NCBI RefSeq assembly: GCF_004010195.1
Contig: NC_057717.1
Span: 103,940,282-104,004,281, forward strand
DNA: 64,000 nucleotides
Source of the DNA: Chiloscyllium plagiosum
Lineage: Eukaryota
Direction of reading: 5' to 3'
Part shown: positions 174-47,474 of the stretch, in pieces
Layout: every line of letters begins with the position of its first letter
Numbering within the stretch: the stretch's first letter is position 1
Translations under genes and position numbers: made by a program
Notes under the pieces: model-generated
The model's input: the letters and a program-made list of their open reading frames with translations, nothing else
Told to the model about the DNA's origin: nothing
Database searches by the model: none

Positions 174-175
174 CC

Positions 176-4235: not shown

Positions 4236-4403
4236 TATGACTGAAGCAGACATCAAAACTTCCAACAGGGGCAGTTAGATGGACGCACTTCTCTTTTAGA
4301 CCAAATGTGTCACACTATTATATAAAAGAGGCAACTTGCCCAAATACCCACTTATCCCAGTGTTAACATTCGTGAAATCATCCTGCATTAAAGTCATCAT
4401 TAC

Positions 4404-4565
4404 CCATGAATCCAATTCCCAGAGGAGGAGACGGCAGGTATTTGGAAGCCGCACTGAGCAGCGGATCGAGGTGCTCTGTCCCTGCTGCAACTTTACTCGG
4501 ATCCCAGCTTCCGCTGCAGAATCTCCGGATCTTTTTCCCTAGGATTCCATTCACTTCTAACAGGG
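4404..4565 (-). CDS. SLC27A1: SLC27A1 coding exon 3
   Basis: 162 bp, acceptor tttctattccAG, donor GTAATG. Encodes ALLEVNGILGKKIRRFCSGSWDPSKVAAGTEHLDPLLSAASKYLPSPPLGIGFM(D), in frame with exon 2. The next exon (YIYTSGTTG motif) was not found in the window. Confidence 0.9.
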
Positions 4566-5704
4566 CTGGAATAGAAACAAAAGGTATAAACCAATCAGGT
4601 GTAGCCCGAGGCAGCGACAGTGCTTCCAGCCTGCTGCAGTCATGGTGCGTTTACTGCATTCTGGCCACAGAACTAACACTGTGACACTCTGTGAGCAACC
4701 CAAATCAGAGATTTTCAAAAATGTGAAATGCAGGTTTGGTGCAGAAAGAGGGTTAATTTAGAAGAAACCTCATAAATCAAGATTAAACTTCATGGACTTG
4801 GGCCAGGATTTAACAAAGCAGGAGGCCATTTGGCCCATTCTATACGAGCTAGCCCTTGGTAAAAGCTAGGCCATTTTCCTTTTGGGAAGACGCTATTGAA
4901 CTCTGTTCTCCAACCTTTTGAGAATTGGAAAGCTCTGGGCTGGTCTATCAATCCCAAGCGGACAGTGCACTGGGCAAAGGGTTAGGCATTGTCAGTGGTC
5001 TCATTTCTAAGAGAACCTGATGTTGGAAACCTCTGTCCATCTTGTCGGTAAGGCTTTCACTTCCTCCTAACGAGCTTGTGTATCATGCGATGACACAAAC
5101 ACATCAACAGACCATACAGCCTGTTACGCCCACACAATGAGCCCTGCCCCTCCTGCTCTTACACTAGCCCTAACTGTTTCCTTTTGAAGTATTTCTCCAA
5201 TTCCTTTGAAAGGTATCCAATTTGCTTCCAACACCTTTATAAGGAATTCATTAGGGAAACAGGTGCAGTACAATAGTGCATCCAGCTAAGAGACTGGGTG
5301 ATACAGCCTTGGCTATTTTCCAGGGCAGTGCCGGACTTTCACCCATCACCTTTACCCCAATCCATATTCTGCATTAAGGGTCGATAGGTATAGGTGGCAG
5401 GCCCTTGATTGAGATCTCTAGCACAAAGATGGAAAGAGTTACCACTCCAGGGAAATAGGTGCAAAGTCCAGGTCATCACTCCAGCTGAGAGAGTGCTGCA
5501 CTGACAGTGATGCTGTATTTATGGTGACAGGTATAATCGTTTGCTCTTTCCAGGCTGCTGTGCACAAGTTGGCTGCATAATGCCCTGTTAAATGACTGGG
5601 AATGCTGTGTGTGTGTGTGTGGGTATACGCATATGTGTCTGTGTGCACGCGTGTGCCTGTGAATTGCAGGCGCTTGTCTTTTTAGCTGTATACTGCAGAC
5701 TCAC

Positions 5705-6099
5705 CATCGTTCATCTCTGCGCCAAAGATAATGGCCTTGGCTCCTGACACAGACAGGCAGTGAGTGAGTGCGTCGAGGCGGAGATTGAAGTTGAGCAGTG
5801 CCCCCTCCACTCCAACTTTAGCCATCCCAAGCCACAGCCCGACAAACTCCGGCCTGCTCTCCATGAACAAGGCAATGACATCACCCGGTCCGTAGCCTTG
5901 CTCCCGAAGGAAGTTGCCCACGGCATTGGAATACTCGTCGAGGTCCCTGAAAGTCCACTTTTCGTCAACCCCTTCATAAATGAGGGCAACCTTATCTGGG
6001 TGTTTCTGCACTGTGTCGTGAAAGATCTTCGGGATAGTGCTGTCTTCCCGTTGGTGTTTCCATACAGCTAACTTAACCCTCAGCAGCAACAACAGACCA
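5705..6099 (-). CDS. SLC27A1: SLC27A1 coding exon 2
   Basis: 395 bp, acceptor ctctttggcAG, donor GTGAGT. Encodes [19 protein letters not shown]...[12 protein letters not shown]...[16 protein letters not shown]...[21 protein letters not shown]...IIFGAEMND, typical of the FATP N-terminal domain. Phase continues from exon 1. Confidence 0.95.
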
Positions 6100-6432
6100 C
6101 TGCCAAAGAGGGGAAAAAGAAAAACCACACACCATTACTTTACATTTCATTCTCCAGGGAACTTGTGAAATCACAGATAACCAACAGGTGCTCCAGTCAG
6201 AGATATGATCTGCAGTTTTTCACCGAAAGCCTAACTGGTGACTACCATTGATTGTCGGAAAACATCCTACCTGCGCTGCTACGGTCCTTGAAGGAACAAA
6301 ATCCGCTTTCCTGACCTGGTCTGGCCTGACTGTGACTCCAGAACCACAGCAAAGTGGTTTACTCTAAAATGCTCTCTGAAATGGCCAAACCAAATATTGC
6401 CCTTGAGCTAATTTGGGGATGAGCAGTAAATG

Positions 6433-6627
6433 GGCTGAAAATGTGTTGCTGGAAAAGCGCAGCAGGTCAGGCAGCATCCAAGGAACAGGGGAATCGACGT
6501 TTCGGAAGAAGGGCTTATGCCCGAAACGTCGATTCTCCTGCTCCTTGGATGCTGCCTGACCTGCTGCGCTTTTCCAGCAACACATTTTCAGCTCTGATCT
6601 CCAGCATCTGCAGTCCTCACTTTCTCC
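6433..6627 (+). mobile_element. Penelope-derived fold-back insertion (family A)
   Basis: Inverted arms 6434-6505 and 6521-6592; perfect 14-bp TSD ATGAGCAGTAAATG at 6419-6432 and 6628-6641. Confidence 0.8.
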
Positions 6628-6709
6628 ATGAGCAGTAAATGTAAACTTGAACAGTCTTGAATGATTATGCTGATTCCAATCTTTCATGGGCACTTTATGA
6701 AGGATTGAA

Positions 6710-7366
6710 AAGATAGTGAAGAAGGCGTTTGGTATGCTTTCCTTTATTGGTCAGAGTATTGAGTACAGGAGTTGGGAGGTCACGGTGCGGCTGTACAGGA
6801 CATTGGTTAGTCCACTGTTAGAATATTGCATGCAATTCTGGTCTCCTGCCTATCGGAAAGATGTTGTGAAATTTGAATGGGTTCAGAAAAGATTTACAAG
6901 AGATGTTGTTAGGGTTGGAGGATTTGAGCTGTAGGGAGAGGCTGAACAGGCTGGGGCTGTTTTCCCTGGAGCATCAGAGGCTGAGGGGTGACCTGATAGA
7001 GGTTTATAAAATCATGAGGGGCATGGATAAGATAAATAGACAAAGTCTTTTCCCTGGGTTGGGGGAGTCCAGAACTAGAGTTGATAGGTTTAGGGCGAGA
7101 AGGGAAAGATATAAAAGAGGCCTAAGGGGTAACTTTTTCTCGCAGAGGATGGTACGTGTATGGAATGAGCTGCCAGAGGAAATGGTGGAGGCTGGTAACA
7201 TTACAACATTTAAGAAGCATTTGGATGGGTATATGAATAGGAAGGGTTTGGAGGGATATGGGCCGGGTGCTGGCAGGTGGGACTAGATTGGGTTGGGATA
7301 TCTGGTTCAGCATGGACGGGTTGGACCGAAGGTCTGTTTCCGTGCTGTACATCTCTATGACTCTAT
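6710..7366 (+). mobile_element. CR1 LINE 3' fragment
   Basis: KAFGMLSFIGQSIEYRSWEV...RLRGDLIEVYKIMRG...WNELPEE; same subfamily as 2388-3385. Confidence 0.9.
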
Positions 7367-8299
7367 GAGCGGCGCTGGAAAAGTACAGTAGGTCAGGCAG
7401 CACCCGAGGAGCAGGAAAATCGATGTTTCACCTCTTGTCCCCTTTTTGCCCTCCTGATTTCCCTCTTAAGTACACTCCTACTGCTGTAATGCTCCTTTAA
7501 GGATTGACTCGATCTCTCCTGTCTATACCTGACATATGCTTCCAGACACAAAGAGACAGACAGAGAGAGAGAGAGAGTGGTGGACAGGCAGTCAGAGAGA
7601 TTGAGATGGAAGTTTATCTGTGATATGGAAATAAGTGTTTCCTGACTTCCCCCCGAATGCCTTGACTCGAATTTTAAAATGATACTCCCTTTTGCTCGAT
7701 ACCCTGACTGGAGATTTTAATTAGTCTGTCCCAGCCTGTTCAAATCCATTTAAAATCCCAAGAGAACACACCTCAATCGTCTCCAAACACAGCTGACGAT
7801 CTTCCTCACTGAAGCCTGAGCCCTTCCCAAAAGAATCTTAATTTTTAAAAATGGCCTTCTCCAGGCCTAGGCTATGGGAAAGATAAGGAAGCAACTCCTC
7901 ACGAGCCTCTCCAACAATCGGAAACAATGTTATCCACAATACTGGTTTCAGCAGAACTGGCACAAGCTTGCTGGCGACAGACCAGGAAGATTTGAGCAAT
8001 GCTTGCAATTCAACCCACTGTTCGCCTCCCAGAAACGATGGCTCACATTTCACCAGGCCTTCGGGAGAGGAAGTGTGACCAAGTGAACTTCAAATCACGT
8101 GAACCTGTGTAACCTTTGGAGAGAACCTGCACCCATGTTAGAAAAGGTCCAGAAAGCTTAGTCACTTTCAGAAGCTGTTTTCTGTTAATAAATTTCTTTA
8201 GGCAAGATCGCTGTGCAGATTAGACTTTTAATTACAGTTACAGAACTTTTCCAACTTTCCTACACGTAGGGTAAACAAACTATTTTAAAGATTGACAGA

Positions 8300-9425
8300 T
8301 ATCTTCCATACCCTTCTCCATAGTAAACACTGATGCAAAATACTCGTTTAGTATCTCCCCCATCTCCTGTGGCTCCACACACAGTTTGCCTTACTGATCT
8401 TTGAGGGCTCTATTCTCTCCCTAGTTACCCTTTTGTCCTTAATATATTTATAAAATCCCTTTGGATTCTCCTTAACCTTATTTGCCAAAGCTACCTCATG
8501 TCCCCTTTTTGCCCTCCTGATTTCCCTCTTAAGTACACTCCTACTGGTTTAATACTCCTTTAAGGATTGACTCAATCTCTCCTGTCTATACCTGACATAT
8601 GCTTCCATTTTTTTCTTAACCAAAACATCAATTTGTTTAATCATTCAGCATTCCCTATACCTACCAGCCTTTCCTTTCACCCTGACAGGAATATACTGTC
8701 TCTGGACTCTCGTTATCTCACTTCTGAAGGCTTCCATTTTTCCAGCCGTCCCTTTGCCTACGAACATCTGCCCCCAAATCAAGTTTTGAAAGTTCTTGCC
8801 TAATACAGTCAAAACTGACCTTCCTCCAATTTAGAACTTCAACTTTTAGATCAGGTCAATCCTCTTCCATCAGTATATTACAATCCCAATAAGGTGATCA
8901 TCCCTTTCTTAATTCTCAGTTCCACCCAAATAACTTCCCTGGATGTATTTCCGGGAATGCCCTCCCAAAGTACAGCTGTAATATTATCCCTATTCAAAAA
9001 CGCTACACCCCCTCCCTTCCTGTAGCATTTGTATCCTGGAACATTAAGCTGCCAGTCCTGCCCATCCCTGAGCCATGTTTCTGTAATTGCTGTGATATCC
9101 CAGTCCCATGTTCCTAACCACGCCCTGAGCTCATCTGCCTTCCCTGTTCGGCCCCTACCAGTTCTACCTTGTTCTCTGCTTTGTCCCTACCTGCCCTGAC
9201 TGTTCCGACTCGTTCCTTCCCCACCCCCACCTTACTTGTTCAAATCCTCCCGAGCAGCTCTTGCAAATCTCCCTGCCAGGATACTAATCTCCTTCCAAAT
9301 TCAGGTGTAATCTGTCCTCCTTGTAAAGGTCACTTCTACCCCAGGAGAGATTCCAATGAGCCAAAAGTGTGAATCCTTCTCCCCTGCACCAGCTCCTCAG
9401 CCACAGATTCATCTGCTCTATCCTT
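8300..9425 (-). mobile_element. CR1 LINE internal ORF2 fragment, decayed
   Basis: Minus strand gives KVKENPKGFYKYIKDKRVTRE...MGEILNEYFASVFT. Part of it (about 8497-8605) recurs at about 7432-7546. Confidence 0.75.
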
Positions 9426-9593
9426 AAGTTTGTTTACATCACATGGTACAACATGAAATGAGGTATAGGAACAGGAAAAGACCATTCACCCCCTCTAGCT
9501 TCACCTATATTCAATCAGACTTCGGCTGATCTGTAGTTTCACTCTATCTGCTGTTTTCATTTCCTGTCACTGAATGCCATCACCTACCAAAGC

Positions 9594-10040
9594 AGGGTTG
9601 AAGGTTTTGACCTATAGGGAGAGGTTGAACAGGCTGGGGCTGTTTTCCCTGGAGTGTCAGAGGCTGAGGGGGTGATCTTATAGAGGTTTTTAAAATCATG
9701 AGGGGCATAGATAGGATAAATTGACAAGGTCTTTTTCCTGGGGTGGGGGAGTCCAGAACTAGAGGGCATAGGTTTGGGGTGAAAGGGAAAAGATTTAAAA
9801 TGGACCTAAGGGGCAACCTTTCCATGCAGAGGGTGGTGAGTGTATGGAATGAGCTGCCAGAGGAAATGGTGGAGGCTGGTACAATTACAACATTTAAAAG
9901 GCATTTGGATGAGTATATGAATAGGAAGGGTTTAGAGGGATATTGGCAAAGTGTTGGCCAATGGGATTAGATTGGGTTGGGATATCTGGTCAGCATGGAC
10001 GGGTTGGACCGAAGAGTCTGTTTCCGTGCTGTACATCTCT
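9594..10040 (+). mobile_element. CR1 LINE 3' fragment
   Basis: Same CR1 3' sequence as 6710-7366. Confidence 0.88.
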
Positions 10041-10792
10041 GCCTTTCAAGTCTTTCACGTTTGAGTTGAATGCCAGCATGGGGGGGGGGGGGGGGGGGAG
10101 AGCTACAGATTCCATTCCTTTTCAAGTGAAGTTGGTGATGATACTGGGGAATATTTGCAGTGAATGATGGAGCTTTATGTCTTAAACCAGTTGAGGCAAT
10201 ACCTGGTTCAGGATAATCAGATTGAGAAACATGGTATTTTCTAACGAGGATTTCACACCTGCTCAGGTTGACATGAGAGAGAATCTATGCCTGGTATCTG
10301 AGACAACGTGACCACCTTAACAAACAAAAGCCAGATTAACTCGCTGCATGGCTCACTTGCAGCTTGAGAGAAGATGCGCACTAATTGGTCCTTATGTATG
10401 TTTTCCTTAATTCTTTCACACCGTACCAACCTCACTGACAAGGTCAGCAATTACTGCTAATTCCTAATTGCCCTTGAGGGCGTGATCACCGGCCATGTTC
10501 TTGAACTCTTCCAATCCATGAGATGCCTGTGCACACACAATGCTGTGGAGAAGAGTTTATTCTATTACTGGCAAGAGCATTGAATTGAATCTGAAGGACT
10601 TTGGGATGCTCTGTGAATGTAATAATGGCGGTTACATCAATGCAAGCTCTTCTTCACTCTTAAAGAAGTGGTGAAAAAAAACTGATGTCCCAAAGAGCAG
10701 ATACAGTCTAATCCGAGACAGTCACTGGGCTTTGTGGAGTTGCATTTGGCTGTCACCAATGCTCTGTTTTTAGTAAAAGTGGCATTCTGACT

Positions 10793-11091
10793 TTAGATTA
10801 GATTCCCTACAGTGTAGAAACAGGCCATCCAGCCCAACAAATCCACACAGTCCCTCTGAAGAGCAACCCACCCCCCTACATTTACCCCTTCACCTAACAG
10901 TATGGGCAATTTAGCACGGCCAATTCACCTAACCTGTACATTTTTGGACTGTGGGAGGAAACCGGAGCACCCGGAGGAAACCCACTCAGACACGGGGCGA
11001 ATGTGCAAACTCCACACAGTCAGTTGCCGGAGGTGGGAATTGAACCCGGGTCTCTGGCGCTGTGAGGCAGCAGTGCTAACCACTGTGCCGC
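10793..11091 (-). mobile_element. tRNA-derived V-SINE (HE1-like)
   Basis: Reverse complement of the GGTTAGCACTGCTGCCTCACAGCGCC head, the GTGTGGAGTTTGCAC...GGGTTTCCTCC core and a (TAATC)n tail. Confidence 0.85.
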
Positions 11092-11194
11092 ATTCTTATT
11101 TAACTTAGCATCAGGCAACCTTTCAGACTATTGAGGAGTGCAGACCCACAAAGTGAAAAGAGAGTTCTAAAATAAAATAATGTTGGCTTCAGGT

Positions 11195-11312
11195 AGAAAG
11201 TGAGGAGTGCAAACGCTGGAGCTCAGAGTCGAGAGTTTGGTGCTGGAAAAGCACAGCGGGTCAGGCAGCATCCGAGGAGCGAGAGAATCAACATTTCGGG
11301 CATAAGTCCTTC
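11195..11312 (-). mobile_element. Penelope-derived fragment (family A), hammerhead core truncated
   Basis: Reverse complement matches the family A terminal repeat but lacks CTGATGA. Confidence 0.65.
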
Positions 11313-12276
11313 CTTGTACAATTGAAATATGGACGGCGGGGTAAATGGGAGAGACCTGCACTTGATTGGAAAGGTTTGGAAACCGGATTGGAATTTGGGT
11401 GCTTAGCTTTTGTTGCTTTAACGCTTAGACAATGTGCTCCAATATTAATAAGGTATTAAAAAGGAGGCGAGAGGGGGGCACGCAGGAGTGGATGGTTAGG
11501 GAATGCACCAAGGTTCAGCTGCAATTGATAGAACACAGGGAAGTGAGAGATATGCAAAAGGAGTCGCAGAAACGTCGCGGTTTTGGAAAGGTTGCATAAT
11601 TTGACTGCTGTGAAACAGTGCAGAAGCAATGTTGTCATTTCAATATATCATCATTCTGTCAGCCTCCTTAATCCCACACTAAGTACAATTTAATCAATGT
11701 GAACGTCAACAAGATACAGGGCAACATCTACTGCTGATGAGAATAATATGGTTTCTTTAAGGTGGTATGCTTGTGGTTTGAGACCCTGTACCACATAGCA
11801 TTGCTTAGTACAGAATTAACAGCAGTGAACAAACTGTTCCCTTTAAAGAAAGGTGGCTGTTTCAACAGACAGAGACCAACTCCACTGCAAGGGTGTCACC
11901 AGACTGACAGCTTCACACAATGTCTGTCTACACCTTAGAATGACTTGCAGGTCAGACAGGGCTGAAGCCAGAAGTTGAGGCAGACGTTCAGGTCTAATTA
12001 GCTGACCAGCCAAGTTAGGTGCATGCATCCCCAGTAATCCTTTATTCAAAAGAAAGAATAAAGTGAGATATTAAATCCTTATCCATTCTGAAACGGTTAG
12101 AAAGTATCAAATTAAGATAACTCCCCAACAGAGTTAAGGATTCCTGCAGCAGTGGAGAATGCAGCTCTGCTTTGAATACCAGGAGTAATGTGTCAAATGG
12201 GTCTTTTCACTGTCTAAATGCAGAAAAAGAGGCCGATAATGAAAGGATCTTTTCTTCAATTGCTAATTTTGAGGGG

Positions 12277-12550
12277 GAGGCAATGGCATAGTGGTATTAT
12301 CACTGGACTATTAAATCCAGAGACTGAGGTAATATTCTGGGGACCTGGGTTTGAATCCTGCTATACGGCAGATGATGGAAGTTGAATTCAATAAATATCT
12401 GGAATTAAGAATCTAATCAATTGTTGAACCATCTGCTTCACTAATGTCCTTACCTGGTCTGGCCTACATGTGACTCCAGCTCCACAGCCTTAGGGACAAG
12501 CAATAAATGCTGGTCTAGTCAGTGACACATTCATCCCATGCATGAATTAA
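12277..12550 (+). mobile_element. Second tRNA-derived SINE family
   Basis: GGAGGCAATGGCATAGTGG A-box-like and GGTTTGAATCC B-box-like head; CCTTACCTGGTCTGGCCTACATGTGACTCCAG body. Related copies at about 6230-6430, 21250-21510, 53340-53550, 56610-56935 (-), 57230-57410 and 61217-61520. Confidence 0.7.
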
Positions 12551-12964
12551 AAAAAAAACGTAATTTATCACCTTTATTTTGGCCAATCTGAAATGTAATA
12601 TCGGGAGTGGCAAATCCAAGTTGCATGTATCAATATGAATCACGATCAGATAGACTAACTGGTAAAGGAACATTTCAAAACATGTTGCAACAAATTAGGC
12701 AAAGGGCAAGGACAATTTTATAAGGCTATGGTGAAAGAGCAAGGGGATGGAAGGAATTGGTTGAATTAGTTTCAATAGTAACACGGTTAGCAGACATGGT
12801 GGGCCAAAGGGCCTGTTTCTGTGCTGCATTGTTCTCTGTTCTAAAGGCACAATGGGCCAAGTAGCCCTCTCCAGGGCTGTATAATTTCACTGTGACAGTG
12901 ACCGAGTTGGGAGACGTGAGATCTGCTATTTAGGGAACACTGTCTGCATTAAAGCAGAACAAAT

Positions 12965-13272
12965 GGGTGGCACGGTGACACAGTGGTTAGCACTGCTGCC
13001 CCTCAGCGCCAGAGACCCGGGTTCAATTCCCACCTCAGGTGACTGTCTGTGCGGAGTTTGCACATTCTCCCCGTGTCTGCGTGGGTTTTTCCTGGGTGCT
13101 CCGGGTTCCTCCCACAATCCAAAGATGTGCAGGTTAGGTGAATTGGCCATGCTAAATTGCCCATAGTGTAGGGTCTGGTTGGGTTGCGCTTCGGAGGGTC
13201 GGTGTGGACATGTTGGGCCGAAGGGCCTGTTTCCACACTATAAGTAATCTAATATAATATAATCTAATCTAA
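12965..13272 (+). mobile_element. tRNA-derived V-SINE (HE1-like)
   Basis: GGTGGCACGGTGACACAGTGGTTAGCAC...GGTTCAATTCC head, V-domain core, AATCTAATCT tail. Confidence 0.88.
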
Positions 13273-13398
13273 ATGAACCAACTCTGGGAAGAGATATCCG
13301 TGACCAAATGACCTTTGTCAAGAGATTGGGATGATATACAACACTGGCAACAGACCTTAATACACAAGGTGCGCACGTACGTTCTCAGTGCAACTTAC

Positions 13399-13565
13399 AA
13401 GAGATCTCTTGGTGCAGTTTTTAACAGTATCCGAATAAACCTCCATCCTCCACTTCCCAGATAAATGCCAAAGCTTGCAGCTATAGTCCAGGTCCAGGAA
13501 ACGCCAAAGAGCTGCATCAATCCCAGAGATCCCAGGGACACGCTGCAACTAGCCACACTGTGCAT
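13399..13565 (-). CDS. SLC27A1: SLC27A1 (FATP1, long-chain fatty acid transport protein 1) first coding exon
   Basis: Minus-strand translation MHSVASCSVSLGSLGLMQLFGVSWTWTIAASFGIYLGSGGWRFIRILLKTAPRDL(F) resembles the FATP1 N-terminus. 167 bp, ending at donor GTAAGT. An acceptor (tttctAG|GAAGG ATG) sits 5 nt upstream of the ATG, implying an upstream non-coding exon. Confidence 0.92.
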
Positions 13566-13699
13566 CCTTCCTAGAAATTGCCTGTTAAATACAAAAAGAG
13601 CTCATTGTTAATTATCTGATGTTATCATGTCCTCATTGAAACAAAATAATTCTTAGGGGATCTGACAGGGTAAATGTGGAAAGGTTGCTTCCCCTCATG

Positions 13700-13903
13700 G
13701 TTTGGAGGAGCCGGTGTTGGACTGGGGTGGACAAAGTTAAAAATCACACAGCACCAGGTTATAGTCCAACAGGTTTATTTGGAAGCACTAGCCTTCGGAG
13801 CGCTGCTCCTCCACAACCACCTGATGAAGGAACAGCGCTCCGAAAGCTAGTGCTTCCAAATAAACCTGTTGGACTATAACCTGGTGTCATGTGATTTTTA
13901 ACT
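13700..13903 (+). mobile_element. Penelope-derived fold-back insertion (family B) nested in an old CR1
   Basis: Inverted arms of about 78 bp (13733-13810 and 13828-13905); TSD TTCCCCT(C/A)ATG at 13689-13699 and 13904-13914. Confidence 0.78.
13818..13852 (+). ncRNA. Minimal hammerhead ribozyme motif (family B)
   Basis: CAC-CUGAUGA-A-GGAAC-AGC-GCUCC-GAAA-GC-UA-GUG, with one mismatch in stem II. Confidence 0.6.
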
Positions 13904-14084
13904 TTCCCCTAATGATTAGCCTAGACCCAGATGGTATATCCGGAGAGTAAGTTAGGGCTGAGATGAGGAGGAATTTCTTCTCTCAGCGGTGAGTCTTTGG
14001 AATTCTGTATCACAGAGGGCTGTTGAGGCTGGGTTGTAGATATATTTAAGGTTGAGATAGGCAGATTTTGAATCAGTGAGGAAT

Positions 14085-14260
14085 CTGCGTGGGTTTCCTC
14101 CCACAATCCAAAGATGTGCAGGTCAGGTGCATTGGCCGTGCTAAATTGTCCCTAGTGTTAGGTGCATTAGTCAGAGGGAAATGGGTCTGGGTGGGTACTC
14201 TTCGGACGGTCGGTGTGGACTGGTTGGGCCGAAGGGCCTGTTTCCACACTGTAGGGAGTC
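14085..14260 (+). mobile_element. Truncated V-SINE
   Basis: CTGCGTGGGTTTCCTCCCACAATCCAAAGATGTGCAGG...GAAGGGCCTGTTTCCACACTGTAGG. Confidence 0.75.
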
Positions 14261-15339
14261 TAAAAAAAAATTAAAGAGTTAGAGGGAAATGGAGGAAAGT
14301 GAAGTGAAGGATTATGAAATCAGCCATGATCACGGTGAATAAAAGAGCAGACCCGATGGGCTGAATGGTCTCTCTTTGCTCCTGTGTTATGTCTAACAAC
14401 GAAGCTCAGAAATATTTGCACGAAGGGTTACAATAAGGTTTTAATATCAATATTCACTGCCAGTTGGTTACTGGAGGAATTGCAAGTTTAGCAGGTTCAT
14501 GTCAGTGTTACCAGTTCAAACAACATTAGAGTTCTCCTTGGAACTAAGGGCAACTCAGCAAATCTGTAAATGTCCCATCACATCAGGCATGGGCCATCCT
14601 GTGTAAACTACCTGAAATAAACAGGTCCACTCATCAATATTGTATGCAACTGGCCCTTTGTGGGCCTGAAAACCCTGCCCCAATTTTAAATAGAAGGACC
14701 AAATCTTGCCCCTGCAATTAGTCCTTGGACATTCCCAGCCCAAGCTGCCCTCTCTTTCTCAGCACTAACATTGGCTGCCAAAGACATTTCCTGATATTGA
14801 GGCTGTCCTCTATAATGCCGGCTTTCCAGCTCTGAACTCAAGCTCGTTGAATTCGGAGACTGTCCTTTCTCACTTGGGTAAGGTCCAGGAGTTAAAGCAA
14901 CCCTGATCTCACACTGAAAGCTCCACAGGCTGCTGAGAGTGCTACAGTATGGAGTTCAAACACAAGAAATGGGAGGTCACTCTTTGAGCCTGCTCAGCCA
15001 ATAAGACCCAGGTTGACTCCTTACCTCATCTTCAGTTTTGTGCAATATTCCCAAATCCTACGTATTTCCTCTGTAGCTAAAAAAAAACCTAAATGATCTC
15101 TCCTACCGAACACACACAGCCACAGAATGTTAGACTAGAATACACCAACCTGACCATGTTTTGCAATCCCCTTCCTTATCAGAACATAGATAAACTTCAT
15201 AATTCTGGCAGAGGGAAGACATTGGCAATAAAATATTAACTAGCTTATTTAACTGTTAGGCAACTAAATATTTAGCTACAGCACTACGCCTGTGTAGAAA
15301 TGGTCTGGCTGCAATTCCTTTTTTCCTGATTCTGGGTGA

Positions 15340-15725
15340 AATGCCTAATGTTCTCTTTATCCTGGATGTCACCTCTCAGTCAGATGATTGCTCCAGAGAA
15401 CAGAATCTCCCGTGCAGTACTGAAGTACTGGTCAGTCAGAGGAACCATCTTTCAGGTGAGGCACTAAAACAAGACCTCTTAATTGGACATAAATACCCTG
15501 TGGCACGATTTCTAGGGAGAGAAAGGAGTCCTCCTCAGCTTCTGACCAATATCTAGCCCTCGACAAACATCACAAGTCAAGACTGGTCGGACATTACCTG
15601 ATCGCTTGCTGTACAATGTCACACTGTACAACAGTGGCTTCATTTTATCTATTTGATTGAACATAAAGTGCTTTGTGATGTACTGGGATCGTGAATGATG
15701 CTATAGAAATGTAAATCTTCTTTGC
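15340..15725 (+). mobile_element. Old Deu-SINE-like (SacSINE1-like) element
   Basis: Diverged similarity to reverse-strand copies at about 42490-42670, 44120-44300 and 62130-62500. Family assignment is from memory only. Confidence 0.45.
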
Positions 15726-18700
15726 TTCTTTATAAGCCTTACATAACATGCACCATTACATGGCTTTGGCTCAATAAGGTCTGGAAGAACAAAAGGAAAC
15801 ATAGTTTTCTCTAAACACTCCATGTTTGTCCCAGTACACAGCTACTTTGGGATGGTGGTGCAAACTACACACAAGATTTTAGGAAGTCATTAGCGGAACT
15901 GTCCATTCTCATTCCTCGGTAGGTAACTCAACATGGTTCCTTCAATGTACAGCCATCTCTCTGCAATGGCGTTCAGATTATGCATTTTTCTCTATGTTTG
16001 AGCTGTCACTTTATCTGTGTTGTTCCGAATGCTGAGTACATTCAAACACTGAACCTGTAGTTCTGTGGTTCAAAGCAAACCATCAACCAGAATATAAAAG
16101 CAAAACCGCCAATCTAGAAAGAATGCCCACCGGAAAATCACCTAACCCAATCAGGGAGTGTACGTATGCACTGACTAACTAGATTCAGCACACATTTCAG
16201 GAACAGTAAAAATAGAGTTGTTGTACGGAGGTAGAATTGAGGGGAAAGAAGGAACAGCGTTACAACTGAGCAACAGGCAAGCTGTTTACTTAGATCCTGT
16301 CGCCATCAAATTACCTACTTTGCCAGTTCTCGAAAATGCTCAGTGTTCCTCAAACCGCTCCCACAAACCAACAAGATTTACTGGTGCCTCCCTGGTTTTA
16401 AAAAAATGCTGCACCGTGAGACTGAATCATTGAAGAGGTTCTATTAGTCATTGGGGGAGGGAATATCCATTACATTGACTTTGTGCAGTCTGACTGTTTA
16501 ATATACTCCACAATAGAAACCCAAAACAGGACCTCTCACTGTTTGAACAAAACCTACCTCTTTGACCAAGCTTTTGGTGACTGGGTTCTAACATCCCATG
16601 AGGCTGGGTGGTATATCTTGTTTCATCATGCTTTTGTGAACTGTCTTGAAGCGTTTAATTAGATTGAAGAAATGAATACAAGTTACAGCTGTTGCTCACA
16701 GGATTCAGCATAGTATATCATTTGAAAATAAAATTCAATAACTGAACGATGGAGCTTCTTACACAAGAGACAATTCAATCCATTACGCCCGTGTCATCTC
16801 TCTGAAAGAACTTAGTCACAAAGCACTCCACCCTCGAATCCTTGCAAATACTTTCCTTTTCAAGTATTCATCCTGTTCACTTTAAAAAGCTATTCTTCCA
16901 TCAGCTTCCAGGCTGCACATTCCAGATCATGACAACTTGCTGCTCATTCTCATTTCCCTCTGGTCCCTCGGTTAATCGCTTTAAAGTTGTATCCACTGGT
17001 TACCCACGTTGTTCTTTCTTCTGATTTTCCTTCAAACATCCCCTTCAATCTTTGCTGTTCTTGAGAGAATTATTCCAAACTTTCGTAGGCTCCGAGCTCA
17101 CTCACCCGTGTGCCACCAAGTGATTTAGGCTGTGCCAGAGTCCCAATGTCACGATTCCTTGCCCATTTTTTTACCAGATGCTTTTGAGGTCCCGTTCCCA
17201 CCCACTGAGCCTGATTTTCTGGCACCATTCAGTCTCCTGATCCAACTAGCACCAATCAAAAATCCCCCTGACCGACCTGACAACTGAGACAGTATAGCGC
17301 ACCATTCCACAACAAGCATTGCACACAAAATAAAATCACTCAAGGGATTAGAAAGCTCCATTGTCTCAATCTTTGGAACAGTCTTCATTTGAAACGTGGA
17401 GGGTTTTATGGGTCGTGATTGAAATGGGAGGGCACCCTCCCTTCATCTCAAATGGTCAATTTAAATATTTAACAATTTAGAATTATTCTTTCATCATTGT
17501 TACGCATTTACATTAAGGAATAAGAAAACAGGTAATTGAGTTCACTTCTCTACATTAAAATACGGTACAAACATTTTCAAGTGAAAAGCTGTTTTAGCTA
17601 AGAGAAGCTCAGAATCAACAACTCACCAGATCTGTAACAACGGTTTAGGAATTTCCCAGCACACAGAATCTGAACTGCAAACCAACGAGAATTTCTTTGC
17701 TGGAAACAATTTCTTTTTAATGTTCAGTTGGGATTCCTGGACGAAACAAGTTCACATCGAAAGCAAGGAGATCTCACCTCCCATTAGCATGCAGCAACTT
17801 TCCTGTTTTGATCTGTTTCACTGTACACAAAGATACCTCATTGTGGCTCTGTGGAGCAGCGCACAGGCAGTGTTCCAGCAAGGCTGCTGTTCCATTTTCA
17901 AACAAGTGCTCCACTCACTGGAAACCTCTCAGAGAACCACAAAGTTCTCTGTTAGCTCCTCCCCATCGCCATTCACGGGGGCAGGCGCAGATCAATTGGC
18001 AGAAAAAAAACCTCAAATCCAAATAGATTCTATAGGTGATTACTTCAAAAAGAGCCGTTTTCAAGAATAAACTGTGCAGAATCCCATCGATTTGAATGCT
18101 CTCTCTGCTAATGAATGCCAAAGAAACTGACCTCAGGATAGTTCCAGCTCTAAGTGACACATAATAGGATCAGGTGACAAAAGATATGCACCAAAGATTT
18201 CAGAATAACCCACAGGTTAACACACAGTCTTTTGTTACATAAAATATAGGGGAAGATTACGATTAAGAGAACTCTTATGTAAACTTTAAACTGATCAAGT
18301 TGACCAATGTTAGTTCTGGGGAATGGCACCTTCAGCAATTACAGGAATCTAATGCAATGCTTAAGTGAAGCAATCAAATATTTTCATAATATTACAGCAA
18401 TCTTTCAATATGAATGTTTCCATCATCACATATTCCTACACATGGGGACGCAAAGGTATTTCCCAACAAGACAAGCGACGCTCGGCTTTTCATCGAAGCA
18501 AGTCAAAGTCCCAGACAACTATGTTGAGAAGATATACTGGACAGAAACGTATAACTGCACCATAAAATGCACAGAACACCTGGTTCACAATCCTAATCAA
18601 TCTTATCGGTAGACATGGCTTGAACTGGAGACTTTTGTTGAGAATCCAGGTGAAAGACAACACCATTGGCTAGGATTACAGAACAAAAGCTGAGGAAATG

Positions 18701-19461
18701 AAGCTCTGGTAGCGGGATATAAATCACAAGTTTTATGAAGTTTGTAAATCTGTTAAAGAATAAGCTGAAACAGAATACGGTGCAATTCATTTCTGACCAT
18801 AACAAGGAGGAAGCATACATAAGCATTACAGAATATATCCACAGTTCAGAAGATATTAAGGCTGGAAAGAGAAGAGAATGCACCATAGTCTTATCTATTT
18901 TCTTCACAAAATAAAAACTGCTGAGATCTGGGAAGCAAGCCAGCAAGGCAACAGACAATATAGATTAGTGAACAATATATATTACCTGGGATGGACAAGT
19001 GAGAATCTCTAGAAGTGAGACTTGAGGTGCAAAAAAAGGCAAAGAACTAGTGAAGTAATAATACTGAATGCAGAGGTCAGCATGCAGTTTCTGGGTGTGT
19101 TATCAATTACTCACAGCTCCCTCAGACATTCAAGTCAGCAAAATATGATCAGAAAGAAACGAGACAGGTTCCAACATTCACTTCAACACAAACTGCAAGG
19201 CACATTGCAGTAAGAGTACAATATGCACCCCTAAACCAAAATCAAGCGACAAAACTCACAGTTCACACGGGAATATCAAACATGGGATGGGGGGGGGGAA
19301 GCGTGGTAAAGGAGGCCAGAGTAGTGGTGCTTAACAATCTTGGCAGAGAAAGAAACTTCTCAGAAACTGGGGAAGGAGGAGATAGAATTCAGGGGCAGTA
19401 GGAAGGGGAACTATCAAGGATGGGGAGAAGGGATTCAGTGATGGAGTGATCACTAATGGCT

Positions 19462-19961
19462 NNNNNNNNNNNNNNNNNNNNNNNNNNNNNNNNNNNNNNN
19501 NNNNNNNNNNNNNNNNNNNNNNNNNNNNNNNNNNNNNNNNNNNNNNNNNNNNNNNNNNNNNNNNNNNNNNNNNNNNNNNNNNNNNNNNNNNNNNNNNNNN
19601 NNNNNNNNNNNNNNNNNNNNNNNNNNNNNNNNNNNNNNNNNNNNNNNNNNNNNNNNNNNNNNNNNNNNNNNNNNNNNNNNNNNNNNNNNNNNNNNNNNNN
19701 NNNNNNNNNNNNNNNNNNNNNNNNNNNNNNNNNNNNNNNNNNNNNNNNNNNNNNNNNNNNNNNNNNNNNNNNNNNNNNNNNNNNNNNNNNNNNNNNNNNN
19801 NNNNNNNNNNNNNNNNNNNNNNNNNNNNNNNNNNNNNNNNNNNNNNNNNNNNNNNNNNNNNNNNNNNNNNNNNNNNNNNNNNNNNNNNNNNNNNNNNNNN
19901 NNNNNNNNNNNNNNNNNNNNNNNNNNNNNNNNNNNNNNNNNNNNNNNNNNNNNNNNNNNNN
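19462..19961. other. Assembly gap (exactly 500 N)
   Basis: N run of round length, suggesting an unsized scaffolding join. Confidence 0.99.
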
Positions 19962-20688
19962 TTCCTATCGATGGTGCCCCCTGTTCCTGTCGATGGTGCT
20001 CACTGTTCCTAGAGATGGTGCCCTCTGTTCCTATAGAAGGTGCCCACTGTTCCTGTCGATGGTGCGCTCTGTTCCTGTCGATGGTGCGCTCTGTTCCTGT
20101 CGATGGTGCCCTCTGTTCCTATCGATGGTGCGCTCTGTTCCTATCGATGGTGCCCTCTGTCCCTACAGATGGTACCCTCTGTTCCTATCGATGGTGCGCT
20201 CTGTCCCTGTCGATGGTGCCCTCTGTTCCTATCGATGGTACCCTCTGTTCCTATCGATGGTGCCCTCTGTTCCTATCGATGGTGCCCTCTGTTCCTATCC
20301 ATGGTACCCTCTGTTCCTATCGATGGTGCCCTCTGTTCCTATAGATGGTGCCCTCTGTTCCTATCGATGGTGCCCTCTGTTCCTATCGATGGTGCGCTCT
20401 GTTCCTATCGATGGTGCCCTCTGTCCCTACAGATGGTGCCCTCTGATCCTATAGATGTTGCCCTCTGTTCCTATCGATGGTGCCCTCTGTCCCTACAGAT
20501 AGTGCCCTCTGTCCTTACAGATGGTGCCCTCTGTTCCTATAGATGGTGCCCTCTGTTCCTATCGATGGGTGCCCTCTGTTCCTATCGATGGTGCGCTCTG
20601 TTCCTATCGATGGTGCCCTCTGTTCCTATCGATGGTGCATACTGTTGCTATAGATGGTACACGCTGTTCCTGTCGATGGTGGCCTCTG
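19962..20688. repeat. 22-bp minisatellite (ATCGATGGTGCCCTCTGTTCCT)n, about 33 visible copies
   Basis: Direct tandem units; runs into the gap, so the true length is unknown. Confidence 0.95.
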
Positions 20689-21684
20689 TGTCAGTGGTGA
20701 AGGGAGTGAATGTTGAACCTTAACCCTATAGCAGGTGCCATTCAAATGGGCTGTTTTGTCTTGGGTGACATTGAGCTTATTGAGTGTTGTTGTAGCTGTG
20801 ATAAATAACAATTAGAGTCCCTGAAGTTTTACACAGACCTGCGGTAAGGGCAGGTTTGGATAGTTTGGCCAGCGAACACCTTTGTGTGCCGTTGCAATCA
20901 GAGGTTTGGCCTTAGTTTGAATGTGCAGCTTGTTTAGATGGAGAAAGCTGGTAATGATTTACACTGTCACAAAGTACTGCACTCCCACATCGTCCTTAAA
21001 TCATTCCTAAGTTGTCAGCACTTCCAGTGAACAAACAGAACTAGGGCAGAAGATGTGGAACACTTTAACCTAGTTACTTACTCAAAACTTGCAAAGCAAT
21101 ACAGTGTTTTGTTCATGTTCAGCGAACTGGCTGTGCCCCACAGAGGGCTCTCAGCTCAGGCAGTGTTTGGGGGAGGTGGGGATGGGGGGTTGCCTCGACA
21201 CCTTGTCTAAACCAGAGTCAGCCTGACCTTTCATGGATACAGTAAATTGGTGGATATGTTCATCGGATAATAAGTCAGGGACCTGAACTAATTATCATAA
21301 GAGTCATAAAAAGCGCCATCTTGTTTATCAGTATCCTTTAGGGAAGGAAATCTGCCATCCTCACTCAGTCTGGCCAACATGTGACCCACAGCAATGTGGT
21401 TGACTCTTAACTGCCCTCAGAATTGACCCAAACCATTTGTGGCTCACTACTGCCTTCTGAAGGGGTAGGAGTTTACGGGCAATAAATGCTGCCCTTACCA
21501 GCAATGCCGCCACTCTGTTAGCGACAAGAGATGACACTTCCGCAACTTCCTGTCTTTCCCTGTGCACGGATGTTGATTGGTCCACTGCAGTGTTTTGAGC
21601 CTCAGTCCCTGGTTTCCCCACGTTTGTGGAGTGTTGCTTTCGGTTGTCTGTCCCACTGACAGTTCCATTCCGTTTTCTGGCCAG

Positions 21685-21831
21685 GTATCGAAGGGAAGGC
21701 TGGAATGGCTGCCATCGCTGATCCCAAGAACAAAATCAATCCTGACCTCTTCTCCCAGGACCTGATAAAGGTGCTGCCTCCATACGCCAGGCCAGTCTTC
21801 CTCCGCATCCTCCCTGTCGTGGATACCACAA
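21685..21831 (+). CDS. SLC27A1: SLC27A1 penultimate coding exon
   Basis: 147 bp, acceptor ttttctggccAG, donor GTACGT. Encodes [49 protein letters not shown], with the FATP motifs EGKAGMA and LPxYARPxFLR. Confidence 0.93.
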
Positions 21832-21859
21832 GTACGTTACCGGGAGAAGATCATTAAGC

Positions 21860-22332
21860 TCCAGAGGGTTCACAAAAGATTTATCACGTTGTTGCCGAGA
21901 ATGGAGAGTTTGAGATTAAAAGATAGGCTGGACTTCATTTCACTGGAGCGGAGGAGGTTGAGGAGTAAACCTTTATTGAGGTTTATAAAATCATGAGGGG
22001 CACACACACAAGGTGAATGGCAGGTGTCTTTTCCCTAGGGTGGGGGCGTTCAAGACCAAAGGGACATATTTTTAAGGTGAGAGGAGAAAGATTTAAAAAA
22101 GGACACCGGGGGTAACTCTTTCTATGCAGAGTGTGGTTTGGATGTGGAATGAACTTCAGAGATCGTGGTGGTTGTGGGTACATTTGAAAGGCGTGTATAA
22201 GTTCCTGCATAGGAAAGGTTTGGAGGGATGTGGGCCAGGAGCAGGCAGGTGGGACTAGTTTAGTTTGGGGATATGGTCAGCATGGACTGGTTGGACCGAA
22301 GGGTCTGTTTCCGTGCTGTATGACAGTGACTC
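21860..22332 (+). mobile_element. Diverged CR1 3' fragment
   Basis: GAGGTTTATAAAATCATGAGGGGC...GGAATGAACT...GGTCTGTTTCCGTGCTGTA. Confidence 0.8.
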
Positions 22333-23789
22333 TACACAGCTAACGCATGCAGCGAGTCCAGTTCCGCCGGACGTGTACTTGCGTGTTTGGGACTATGTGA
22401 TGTCAAGTTTTAATTTTTCCCATTTGCAGAAGTGGATGTCTTGTAGCCGTGTCCCAGGGAGTGTAGCACACGGTGGTCAGTCAGTGTGCGTTTCTCTTGA
22501 CACACCTTGATCATCTCAACTTTTCCATACAGATGAGGCAGGGGCCTGATAACAGACCTTGTCTTAGCCCTCTGGACTGGAGCTGGCTTTGCTCTGGCCC
22601 ATTAGTTACTGCAGGATACCACTCAGCCTCTTGCAGCCTGTTCCACCGTTCAATAAATCCTGGCTGAAATTGAATCATGACTCCACATCTCGTAACATCA
22701 TCCTTAACAAAACTCAACCCACCTGCACTCCCTCCACCAGCCTCAACAACTTTCTGGGATGGAGGTTTCTAGATCGTTACTTCTCTGTTGCCTGATATCA
22801 GCCCTGAAAACCCACCATTAATTGTAAGGTTACCCTCTCCATGCCCCTCTTCATTGCCTCCCACCAGAACTGGTTCCTCAGTCAAACCTATCAAGTGTTT
22901 TCATCATCGTAAACCATTCTTCCTTCGTTTAGTTTAATTTATTTCAAACGTTCTTCGTTCTCAGACTGTCTTTGCCTCCCTGTTCCATTCAGCGACTACA
23001 CAATTACTCAGTCCTTTCAGATGAAGCTCCTTGCTGTGTCAGTGCTGAGCTCTCCCCCTGGCCTCCTTTGTGAGTGGTGTCACTTGTAACTGGGATCCTG
23101 ACGGACGCTCCCCTCCCTGTCTCTGCAGAGTTTCACATGTTGTGTTTTTTCTCGTTTTCCCATTCAGAAAACAGCTCTGTCTCAGTGCAAAGGACCTGGC
23201 CACCAGGTTTCCAGCAAATGTTTCTCCAAGTCACCCGAGGATCCCTGTCCATGGCCTTGTGATCCCGTCCACCATCACGGAGTCAGTTCTCAGGCTGTAT
23301 GGAAGCCTGCCCAGATCGGTCTCCTTTCCCCATGTTGAAGTACAATCTTTTCAACCTTCAAACCAAGCCCTCTTTCATCAGGAAGACTGGAGACATTATT
23401 CTAGTTCACTTGATCTACTCCCTCTGACTCTGACTCAGACTCGGACCTGGACCTCCTGTCCAAAGCTAACCTGCAAGCTTCACAAACTAGTTGTCGCTGA
23501 AGGCTACTCATTATCATGTTTGTGATGTTTCCCACCTCAGCTCCCACTGTTAAAACCCCCTTGAGTCTGCTTTTATCTCTTGGCAATTGGTTCTGCCCAC
23601 CCCACCTTCCAGCATCTTCAGCTATTGTTGCAGGGGTCCAGTAAACTCAAGGTCCAGACGCGCCAACAGCCATTCTCGGCCTTGTTTCCACCATCTTCCC
23701 CTCACCTGCCCCCACAGCTTTCCACTGTCCCCACTGCTGTTCTGTGCAGCTCCCCTTCCCTTCCCTCAGGATTTCCAGGCTCTGTGTTG

Positions 23790-25335
23790 GAGCTAAGGAT
23801 AGATAAGTCTCCTGGCCCTGATGGAATGCATCCCAGGGTTCTAAAAGAGATGGCGGGAGAAATAGGTGGACTGGCAGTAATTTTCCAAAATTTGCTGGAC
23901 TCTGGGGCAGTCCCAGCAGATTGGAAAACAGCAAATTGATGCCACTGTATAAAAAGGGAGGTAGACAAAAGATGGGGGATTATAGACCAGTTAGCTTAAC
24001 CTCTGTAGTGGGGAAGATGCTTGAGTCTGTTATCAAGGAAGAAGTAGCGGAGCATCTTGAAAGAGATTGTCCCATTGTACAGACGCAGCATGGGTTCATG
24101 AAGGGCAGGCCATGCTTCACATATCTTTTGGAATTCTGTGAAGACATTTCAAGCAACGTGGACAAAGGGGACCCAGTGGATGTGGTGTACCTAGATTTCC
24201 AAAAGGCCTTTGACAAGGTGCCACACAAGAGGCTGCTGCATAAGATAAGGATGCAAGGCATTATGGGTAAAGAATTAGTATGGATAGAGGATTGGTTTGC
24301 TAACAGGAAGCAAAGAGTGGGGATAAATGAGCGCTATTCTGGCTGGCAATCAGTAACTAGCGATGTGCCTCAGGGATCAGTGTTGGGACCACAATTATTC
24401 ACAATTTATAAAGATGATTTGGAGTTGGGGACCACGTGTAGTATGTCAATGTTTACAGATGAGACTATGATTAGTGGACTCTGAAACTTTGTAGAGGAAC
24501 AAGGATACTATGACTGAGTGGGCAAAGGTCTGGCAGATGGAGTACAACGTTAATAAATGTGAACTCCTATATTTTGGGAGGAGTAATAGTAAAACAGACT
24601 ATTACATGAGTGGTAAAAAGTTGTAGCATGTGCAGAGGGACCTGGGTGTCACAGAGGGTTGGTCTGCAGGTACAACAGGTAAATAGGAAGGCAAATGGAA
24701 TATTGTCCTTCATTGCTGAAGGGGTTAAGTTTAAAAGCAGGGAGGTTATGTTGCAGCTGTACAAGGTGCTGGTGAGGCCACACCTGGAGTACTATGTGCA
24801 GGTTTGGTCTCCTTACTTGAGAAAGGATGGACTGGCACCGGAGGGGGTGCAGAGGAGGTTCACCAGGTTGGTTCTGGAGTTGGGGGGGGGCGGTTGGCTT
24901 ATGAACAGAGATTGAGTAGACTGGGATTATATTCATTGGAATTCAGAAGAATGAGGGCGGGCTCTTATAGAAATATAACTTTTATGAAGGGAATAGATAC
25001 GATAGAAGTAGAGAGAATGTTTCCACTGGCAGGTGAAACTAGGACAGGAGGCATAGCCTCACGATTAGGGGGAGCAGATTTAGAACTGAACTGAGAAGGA
25101 ACTTCTTTACCAGAGGGTTGTTAATCTGTGGAATTCCCTGCCCAGGGAAGTTGTCATCACTACTTCAGTAACTAAGGTAGATATGTTTTTGAACAGTAAA
25201 GGGATTAAGGGTTACAGTGAGCAGGCAGGTAAGTGGAGCTGAGGCCATGGAAAGGTCAGCCATGGTCTTATTGCGTGGCGGAGTGGGCTCGATGGGCCAA
25301 ATGGCCTACTCCTGCTCCTGATTCTTATGTCCTAT
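23790..25335 (+). mobile_element. Decayed CR1 LINE with RT domain
   Basis: DKSPGPDGMHPRVLKE...YRPVSLTSVVGK...QHGF...YLDFQKAFDKVPH...VPQGSVLGP, interrupted by stops, frameshifts and deletions. Confidence 0.92.
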
Positions 25336-25888
25336 GGTAGAGTACTTACCATAGTAAATGATGTTCCTCCCAGAACCCATGCTGTGCAGTGTCAGCAGTA
25401 TGGTTGGGTGTTGATCTAACGATAGATTCACCATTAATGTTTGCAACAGAGTTTGAACGAATGTGGATGAACCCTAGAGTACAATCCTTGCAGTGTTTTT
25501 TTCCCTTTCCTGATTTTAAGTTAAACATTCACAAATAAATCCCTCCAGTTCCACACTCTAACCTGACGTGGCCTGTTCTATTACTGTGGTTTCTGTGTTC
25601 CCTCGTTTCCCAGAACTTTTTTGCCTGGGTGAGAATGTGATCCTTCCTTTTAATCCATTGCCAGTGTGTGGAGATGCTGAAGGTTGTACAGCATGTACGC
25701 AGTGAGGAATGGAGTGATAGTCTCAGTCTCAGTTCTTAGACCTGCCACCAGAACTGGTGAGCTGAAACATTGACTCGATTTCTGTCTCCACAGATGCTGC
25801 CCGGCCTGCTGAGTCTCTCCTGCATTCCTCCCCACCCCCACCCCCTCCATTCTCAGTATTTTGTTTTTGTAGCTATCCTTTTTTTTGA

Positions 25889-26220
25889 GTGGCTCGGTGG
25901 TTAGCACTGCTGCCTCACAGCACCAGGGTTCCTGGTTTGATCCCAGCCTCGGGTGACTGTCTGTGTGGAGTTTGCACATTCTCCCCGTGTCTGCATGGGT
26001 TTTCTCCGGTTTCCTCCCAAAGTCCAAAAGATGTGCAGGCTAGGGTGGATTGGCCATGGCAAATTGCCCATTGTGTCCAGGGATGTGTAGGTTAGGTGCA
26101 TTAGTCAGGGGTAAATGTAGATGATTAGAGTAGGGACTGGGTCTGGTTGGAATACTCTTCGGAAGGTGGTGTAGACTTGTGGGGCCAAATTACACTTTCC
26201 ACGCTATAGAAATTCTATGA
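25889..26220 (+). mobile_element. V-SINE
   Basis: Same head, core and tail as 12965-13272. Confidence 0.85.
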
Positions 26221-26350
26221 ACTTTGGGGATGAATTCTTCTTAACAGTAGCTCTCAAATGGTTTTGATAGTGAAAATGAGTGCATTCAGGAGGTGAATGT
26301 TTGCATCCTCCCCAGGCAGAGTTGGTAATCAGGTTTTTGTATGGTTCCAG

Positions 26351-26508
26351 GTACTTTCAAAATCCAGAAGACAAGATTGCGAAAAGAGGGTTTTGACTTG
26401 CACCAGACAAATGACAGACTGTACTTCCTGGATTCCAGACTGGGGAAGTACATTCCCCTCGATAAGAACGTCTATGACGCTATCCTGGCTGGAAATTACC
26501 ATCTATAG
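26351..26508 (+). CDS. SLC27A1: SLC27A1 last coding exon
   Basis: Acceptor ggttccAG. Encodes (S)[51 protein letters not shown], then TAG at 26506-26508; matches the FATP1 C-terminus. Confidence 0.93.
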
Positions 26509-45512: not shown

Positions 45513-45620
45513 AAACAACTGCTGTCCAGAATCTCCATTCCTAATAACTATGTGGTTGCGATTAACCCCGCGTTGTCTGTGGAGGAAGCGGCAGACAAAT
45601 ATGCTGAAAGATTAAGAGAG
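45513..45620 (+). CDS. PGLS: PGLS exon 2
   Basis: 108 bp with AG/GT boundaries; KQLLSRISIPNNYVVAINPALSVEEAADKYAERLRE. Confidence 0.93.
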
Positions 45621-47410: not shown

Positions 47411-47474
47411 TCCTGAGTGATAGGTGTAATTGTCGAAGTGGAGAGAGGGTGACTTGCTCCAACACAGATCATTG

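Follow-up and report, generated by a model that had tools for sequence, protein, structure and literature searches.

Exons of SLC27A1 on opposite strands in the Chiloscyllium plagiosum assembly are best explained by a misoriented 39.8-kb piece

The SLC27A1 (FATP1) gene appeared in two parts on opposite strands in a stretch of 64,000 nucleotides from the Chiloscyllium plagiosum genome (G000:C8:103940282-104004281, plus strand; contig NC_057717.1, called C8 below), which is referred to as the window. Its exons were mapped with a shark FATP1 of 646 amino acids (P0004) as the guide, by means of a whole-genome search, tblastn and a splice-site search, and for tblastn the analyzed sequence was extended leftward from the window by 100 kb. 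Of 40 candidates scored in the whole-genome search with P0004, 34 were matches, 12 of them on C8, one per coding exon. Amino acids 1 to 241 were encoded by three exons on the minus strand and amino acids 547 to 646 by two exons on the plus strand, both sets inside the window. An earlier interpretation, made from the letters alone (the sequence-only reading), had described this arrangement between window positions 4404 and 26508, which proved to be the outer exon boundaries in the exact GT-AG exon map. No match to amino acids 242 to 546 was obtained by tblastn inside the 64-kb window, in agreement with its observation that the middle exons, including that with the YIYTSGTTG motif, were absent there. 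It had predicted them on the minus strand beyond position 1, and this is where exons 4 to 10 were found, in collinear order, at C8 103921127-103930415 (9.9 to 19.2 kb left of window position 1). Per-exon E-values of 1e-11 to 1e-72 in tblastn ruled out matches by chance. All 12 coding exons were present, each once, the minus strand bearing exons 1 to 10 in collinear order and the plus strand bearing exons 11 and 12 (Table 1). The remaining 22 matches to P0004 represented three paralogous loci on C30 (11 matches), C32 (6) and C2 (5), each confined to a single strand.

Since an exact run of 500 N stands at either end, exons 1 to 10 could be assigned to one piece of 39,779 bp (C8 103919964-103959742, corresponding to window -20317 to 19461). 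The switch of strand fell on the right-hand gap, bordered by a minisatellite, as the sequence-only reading had reported; the minisatellite directly follows the gap and has a 22-bp unit. On the 3' side of exon 10, 1,163 bp separate it from the left-hand gap (C8 103919464-103919963). Across 164 kb, nine runs of N were counted, with lengths of 69, 147, 290, 143, 500, 2105, 500, 481, and 500; three of the nine were exactly 500. The right-hand piece, which carries exons 11 and 12 and a PGLS-type gene, measured 33.7 kb (window 19962-53643), and exact 500-N runs stood at both of its ends, too. The supposed inversion junctions were runs of N at both ends, with no assembled junction sequence, and neither of the non-repeat ends beside the gaps continued into the minisatellite. 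For the final 800 bases of each such end, no match other than to itself was obtained, except that one end also contained a dispersed short repeat. The run of 2,105 N (C8 103938177-103940281) is situated within the 39,779-bp piece, in intron 3, and ends at the first base of the window. This run, with exons of one and the same strand on either side, may represent a gap of estimated size.

The reverse complement of the 22-bp minisatellite unit was detected at the opposite end of the 39,779-bp piece, in its first bases after the left-hand gap (C8 103919976-103920191). A scan of the 3.56-Gb genome with a two-unit pattern, allowing up to 3 mismatches, yielded 302 matches (269 forward and 33 reverse), and a reversed-pattern control yielded 0 and 0. 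Among the 100 matches listed, comprising all those with 0 to 1 mismatch and some of those with 2, 16 were at the two places on C8, the only sites on a sequence of chromosome size, and the other 84 were on nine small unplaced contigs. Eight of these contigs, with lengths of 1,012 to 3,969 bases, carried the repeat along nearly their whole length. The ninth (G000:C93257; 12,000 bases) contained 1.77 kb of minisatellite, then 9,612 N and then 618 GC-rich, promoter-like bases. These 618 unique bases had no other match, either genome-wide or within the 164 kb, and they are either sequence that should fill one of the gaps or the product of a chance mis-join. Together, the nine unplaced contigs hold approximately 14.9 kb of array. 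Most simply, there would be one long array in intron 10, not crossed by the assembler, whose edges now appear 40 kb apart, in opposite orientation and each beside a 500-N gap.

When the 39,779-bp piece was flipped, the array halves came to stand head to tail across a single gap, with intron 10 consisting of 1,163 bp, the array and 1,723 bp. The sequence-only reading had expected a flip to bring the missing exons to the gap. With the piece flipped, the exon 10 donor fitted the exon 11 acceptor: exon 10 ends in ...GTGCCAG/gtaagc (phase 1) and exon 11 starts with ctggccag/GT ATT GAA, which is phase compatible. GGT (Gly) is the codon split at this join, and the resulting VPG-IEGKAG agrees with the relatives. 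The expected spliced junction between exons 10 and 11 is ...GTGCCAG/GTATTGAA.... Joining the 12 exons resulted in 1,941 nucleotides encoding 646 amino acids without an internal stop, and all of the eleven introns were GT-AG. Compared with the protein of a congener (P0134), 4 of 546 residues differed in the part encoded by exons 1 to 10 and 3 of 100 in that encoded by exons 11 and 12, equal to 7 of 646 (99% identity). In six other shark comparisons, the C-terminal 100 amino acids contained 4 to 13 differences and were always the faster part; examples for the N-terminal and C-terminal parts are 7/546 and 4/100, 17/546 and 8/100, and 35/546 and 12/100, respectively. Relaxed constraint or decay of exons 11 and 12 was considered as well. 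No sign of it was seen, as the C-terminal 100 residues evolve faster in every shark pair compared.

The contig to the left of the left-hand gap ends (103919463) in a CpG island (C8 103919032-103919481; GC content of 0.62, observed/expected ratio of 0.75), the sole island adjoining the 39,779-bp piece. It contains three direct copies of a ACTACATTTCCCGGCGTGCAA-like motif, which resembles the ZNF143/SBS promoter motif. Twenty bases before the gap, a plus-strand donor (GAGG/gtgagt) points into the gap. An acceptor AG is present 16 nucleotides upstream of the exon 1 ATG, and a non-coding exon is therefore expected farther upstream. Between the ATG exon and the right-hand gap (Table 1), no CpG island was found. 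A role of the island as the promoter of SLC27A1 would fit only the flipped orientation.

The exon map, both gaps, the inverted array halves and the restored open frame are direct observations. From this sequence pattern, we consider it probable, at roughly 85%, that the 39,779-bp piece was given the right position but the wrong orientation in scaffolding. Accepting this, C. plagiosum would possess one intact SLC27A1 (FATP1a) gene that is displayed as broken by the assembly. The scaffolder would have set the piece with exons 1 to 10 in place but reversed, between two 500-N placeholders. One contig break would lie inside the long 22-bp minisatellite of intron 10 and the other beside the GC-rich CpG island. 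After the flip, the order would be, all on the plus strand, the promoter-like CpG island, exons 1 to 10, intron 10 with a continuous minisatellite, exons 11 and 12, and PGLS. The inverted segment is bounded by exact 500-N gaps on both sides, and flipping restores two features that span the join, namely, the frame of 646 amino acids and the common orientation of the array halves. The proposal of the sequence-only reading that the left contig is inverted was thus strengthened by a second exact 500-N gap, a reverse-complement minisatellite end and the restored frame. An artifact is favored because the junctions are placeholders, the non-repeat ends miss the array, the gene is intact both here and in the congener, and misorientation of short contigs by Hi-C scaffolders is both frequent and documented. 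That the assembly contains an error of order or orientation of any kind is very probable, and the broken layout is almost certainly an assembly error and not biology. Its cause would lie with the scaffolder, not with the genome of the animal.

Table 1. Positions of the SLC27A1 coding exons, gaps and other features in the window and to the left of it
Feature	Window positions	C8 positions	Strand	Remarks
Coding exon 1 (ATG at 13565)	13399-13565	103953680-103953846	-	GT-AG
Coding exon 2 (amino acids 56-188)	5705-6099	103945986-103946380	-	GT-AG
Coding exon 3 (amino acids 188-241)	4404-4565	103944685-103944846	-	Acceptor ..ttccag, donor gtaatg; identical to P0133
Coding exon 4, with YIYTSGTTG	left of window	103930346-103930415	-	
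Coding exon 5	left of window	103929753-103929844	-	
Coding exon 6	left of window	103927483-103927592	-	
Coding exon 7	left of window	103925407-103925616	-	
Coding exon 8	left of window	103923851-103923977	-	
Coding exon 9	left of window	103922204-103922341	-	
Coding exon 10	left of window	103921127-103921291	-	
Coding exon 11 (amino acids 547-595)	21685-21831	103961966-103962112	+	Acceptor ..ctggccag
Coding exon 12, last (amino acids 596-646 and stop TAG)	26351-26508	103966632-103966789	+	
In-window part of the 39,779-bp piece	1-19461		-	N-run map and exon map
Stretch between the ATG exon and the right-hand edge of the piece	13566-19461		-	No CpG island
Exact 500-N gap, site of the strand switch	19462-19961	103959743-103960242	.	
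Minisatellite, 22-bp period, 33 copies, 88% matches	19962-20689		+	Directly right of the gap
PGLS-type gene	40880-48217		+	Three PF01182 exon matches

Errors of this type are known from scaffolding by chromosome conformation capture (Hi-C). In one benchmark (PMC7672694), Hi-C scaffolders misoriented short contigs with a local orientation error of 4.3%, which is stated there to be harmful to gene prediction. The present case is similar in its sequence pattern to the errors benchmarked in that report on HiC-Hiker: a short piece of 39.8 kb stands in the right place, reversed and between fixed-size gaps, its neighbors agree with one another, and the gene model (P0133) is truncated. Scaffolders of the Hi-C type put in gaps of arbitrary fixed size, according to another report (PMC8389630).

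Several points weigh against a misoriented piece. The inverted array halves alone do not decide the matter, because the same pattern is expected from a real inversion that broke inside the array. No unplaced contig bridges the two non-repeat gap ends (last 800 bases of each), and the flipped junction itself is unseen. Since 202 of the 302 minisatellite matches were outside those listed, a second chromosomal site is possible. A gap of 500 N is a common default and the mark of a Hi-C join by convention, and a literature search on this convention returned nothing specific. Finally, the island on the left contig is a candidate for the SLC27A1 promoter and a non-coding first exon, and its link to the gene is one that we infer.

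It is also conceivable, albeit unlikely, that the 33.7-kb right-hand piece was both misplaced and misoriented, that its proper place is left of exon 10, and that the gene truly lies on the minus strand. This piece is likewise short and enclosed by two exact 500-N gaps, and moving it leads to the same result at the level of the gene, which is again one intact copy. However, two errors, of order and of orientation, would be required instead of one, and the CpG island of the left contig with its plus-strand donor would then serve no gene. Flipping the 39.8-kb piece is more parsimonious than moving the 33.7-kb piece, and it fits the CpG island.

A real inversion of approximately 40 kb in the animal or the species, with breakpoints in the intron 10 minisatellite and upstream of the ATG exon and with FATP1 truncated as a result, appears very improbable. 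The assembled order matches it literally, and the array halves are mutually inverted, as such an event would leave them. However, both supposed breakpoints coincide with placeholder gaps. Continuous inverted junctions were not found as sequence at either of them, only runs of N, and no unplaced contig overlaps the ends. Furthermore, the non-repeat gap ends do not enter the minisatellite, as abutting ends should. All 12 exons are intact, as are the splice sites and the reading frame, the C-terminal 100 amino acids are not overdiverged by the comparisons given above, and the gene of the congener is intact. The cut between amino acids 546 and 547 falls within the AMP-binding C-terminal domain (PF13193, amino acids 523 to 598 of P0134, with a score of 20.2 bits that is below the cutoff of 24.5 bits), which a real break would sever. 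If this inversion existed in the shark lineage or the individual, the gene would encode a FATP1 of 546 residues without the end of the C-terminal domain, and exons 11 and 12 would be intact orphans beside PGLS. A well-known event of this kind is the intron 22 inversion of factor VIII in hemophilia A, which occurs between inverted repeat copies and whose junctions have been sequenced. The layout of SLC27A1 is similar to it in that an inverted block parts the first exons from the last and a repeat is found at a breakpoint. In contrast to factor VIII, SLC27A1 has one tandem array as its repeat, and N placeholders stand at both junctions.

An alternative of the sequence-only reading, two partial paralogues, can be rejected with hardly any reservation, as can pseudogene fragments resembling the halves of a gene, because opposite strands are the sole point in their favor, whereas residues 1 to 546 and 547 to 646 are each covered exactly once without overlap and with matching phases, both halves are 97 to 99% identical to the same FATP1a orthologue, FATP1-type exons 11 and 12 are single copy in the whole genome, and the C30 paralogue has its own collinear exons up to the last one, with weaker sets on C2 and C32 elsewhere, all of them single strand. 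The sequence-only reading had also named a case that would refute an inverted contig, namely, a full gene on the minus strand to the left that possesses last exons of its own. It was looked for by tblastn, and neither such a gene nor a minus-strand copy of exons 11 and 12 was found in the 100 kb left of the window.

The assignment to SLC27A1 was supported by comparison with known proteins. The stop-to-stop frame containing exon 2 (window 5682-6134, minus strand) represents a typical FATP N-terminal segment. Searching with it gave 241 proteins with E-values of 0.001 or less among 652 candidates. In the 120 of these 241 that were listed, the best matches were shark FATP1 or FATP1a models of 646 amino acids with 81 to 92% identity, and FATP4 proteins were lower, with 62 to 67%. 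Over the whole length, the joined protein was closest to FATP1, deviating from the FATP1a of the congener at 7 of 646 residues. The AMP-binding domain PF00501 was detected at amino acids 82 to 448 of P0133 (E-value of 9.6e-57), and exon 4 carries the YIYTSGTTG motif. The cluster of P0004 at 90% identity comprises 12 named members, P0133 among them. The shark FATP1a orthologues P0134, P0124, P0132, and P0004 (646 amino acids) are equal in length to the flipped gene, and only the layout in the assembly differs.

Gene models from this genome and its relatives carry traces of the same break. P0133 (575 amino acids) shows no difference to exons 1 to 10 over 546 residues, and its final 29 amino acids derive from read-through into intron 10 (C8 103921038-103921126). 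It is evidently the public model of the SLC27A1 locus, truncated by the break. In the congener, P0134 is encoded at its full length of 646 amino acids on one sequence of 64.5 Mb and has a match to every one of the 12 exons. An older draft of the congener's genome shows the gene cut at intron 10 into two contigs. P0128 (577 amino acids; 34.5-kb contig) consists of exons 1 to 10 and read-through, and P0188 (112 amino acids; 47.5-kb contig) starts with translated minisatellite that is followed by exons 11 and 12. In the congener, the array and exon 11 share one strand, with the array upstream. As that older draft was split at intron 10 as well, the breaking of assemblies by this array is conserved within the genus. 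The join of exons 10 and 11 was also searched against a protein collection with proteins of 30 to 354 amino acids. Among the 120 of 1,786 matches listed, there was no RNA-derived open reading frame of this species with near 100% identity across the join, and only partial genomic models of relatives (P0153 and P0188) covered it.

These findings are of value for curation and not for biology, and their biological interest is low. The public model is already truncated, with 575 instead of 646 amino acids; 29 residues at its end come from translated intron sequence, and the C-terminal 100 residues of the protein are missing. Taken at face value, the layout would enter comparisons of synteny or gene families in cartilaginous fishes as a species-specific inversion or a gene loss. 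The pattern of a short piece between two fixed-size gaps, with the exons of one gene split between strands and the halves of one tandem array inverted at the gaps, could serve as a simple screen for misoriented pieces in assemblies of this kind.

The PGLS-type gene was identified by exon matches to PF01182 on the plus strand at window positions 40880-41134, 46606-46716, and 48071-48217, which is 14 to 22 kb 3' of exon 12. As the sequence-only reading had stated, SLC27A1 and PGLS are same-strand neighbors in human, and a downstream PGLS neighbor on the same strand is what was found for exons 11 and 12. The first PGLS exon lies in a CpG island (window 40551-41200; GC content of 0.62, observed/expected ratio of 0.99) that ends at about the 481-N gap. 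As this island and that of the left contig both end at gaps, GC-rich promoters are suggested to have caused gaps repeatedly in this assembly. In window 26600-64000, 150 of the 174 open reading frames of at least 62 amino acids were scanned, and none of these 150 had a Pfam match; N-containing frames were excluded, which hid the first PGLS exon. On the other side, the nearest 40 kb left of the 39,779-bp piece contained 103 of the 218 open reading frames of at least 80 amino acids across 80 kb, and these gave three Pfam matches: Amidase_2, RVT_1, and TCAD3, the latter below its cutoff. The first of these frames (276 amino acids; L040:1916-2743, minus strand, C8 about 103902197-103903024) matched the PF01510 amidase with an E-value of 7.8e-11 and is a predicted peptidoglycan-recognition-protein-like (PGRP-like) gene, approximately 17 kb left of the piece. 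The RVT_1 frame was at L041:4328-4861.

Several minor features were observed in and around SLC27A1. In other sharks, longer isoform models (P0126, P0127, and P0138) have 6 to 10 extra residues (M..QPLDR or MLQNWRSLDR) before the usual Met. The 16 nucleotides between the exon 1 acceptor and the ATG in the window read QFLGR in frame, and an upstream exon could supply an alternative start in some species. Open frames similar to the reverse transcriptase of retroelements of the long interspersed nuclear element (LINE) type were present in or around the introns of the gene at window positions 2587-3393 (minus strand), 23822-24484 (plus strand), and 6870-7286 (plus strand). Approximately 1 kb 3' of the stop codon, a unit of 129 bp occurs twice in tandem (window 27458-27713; 96% matches), possibly inside the 3' untranslated region.

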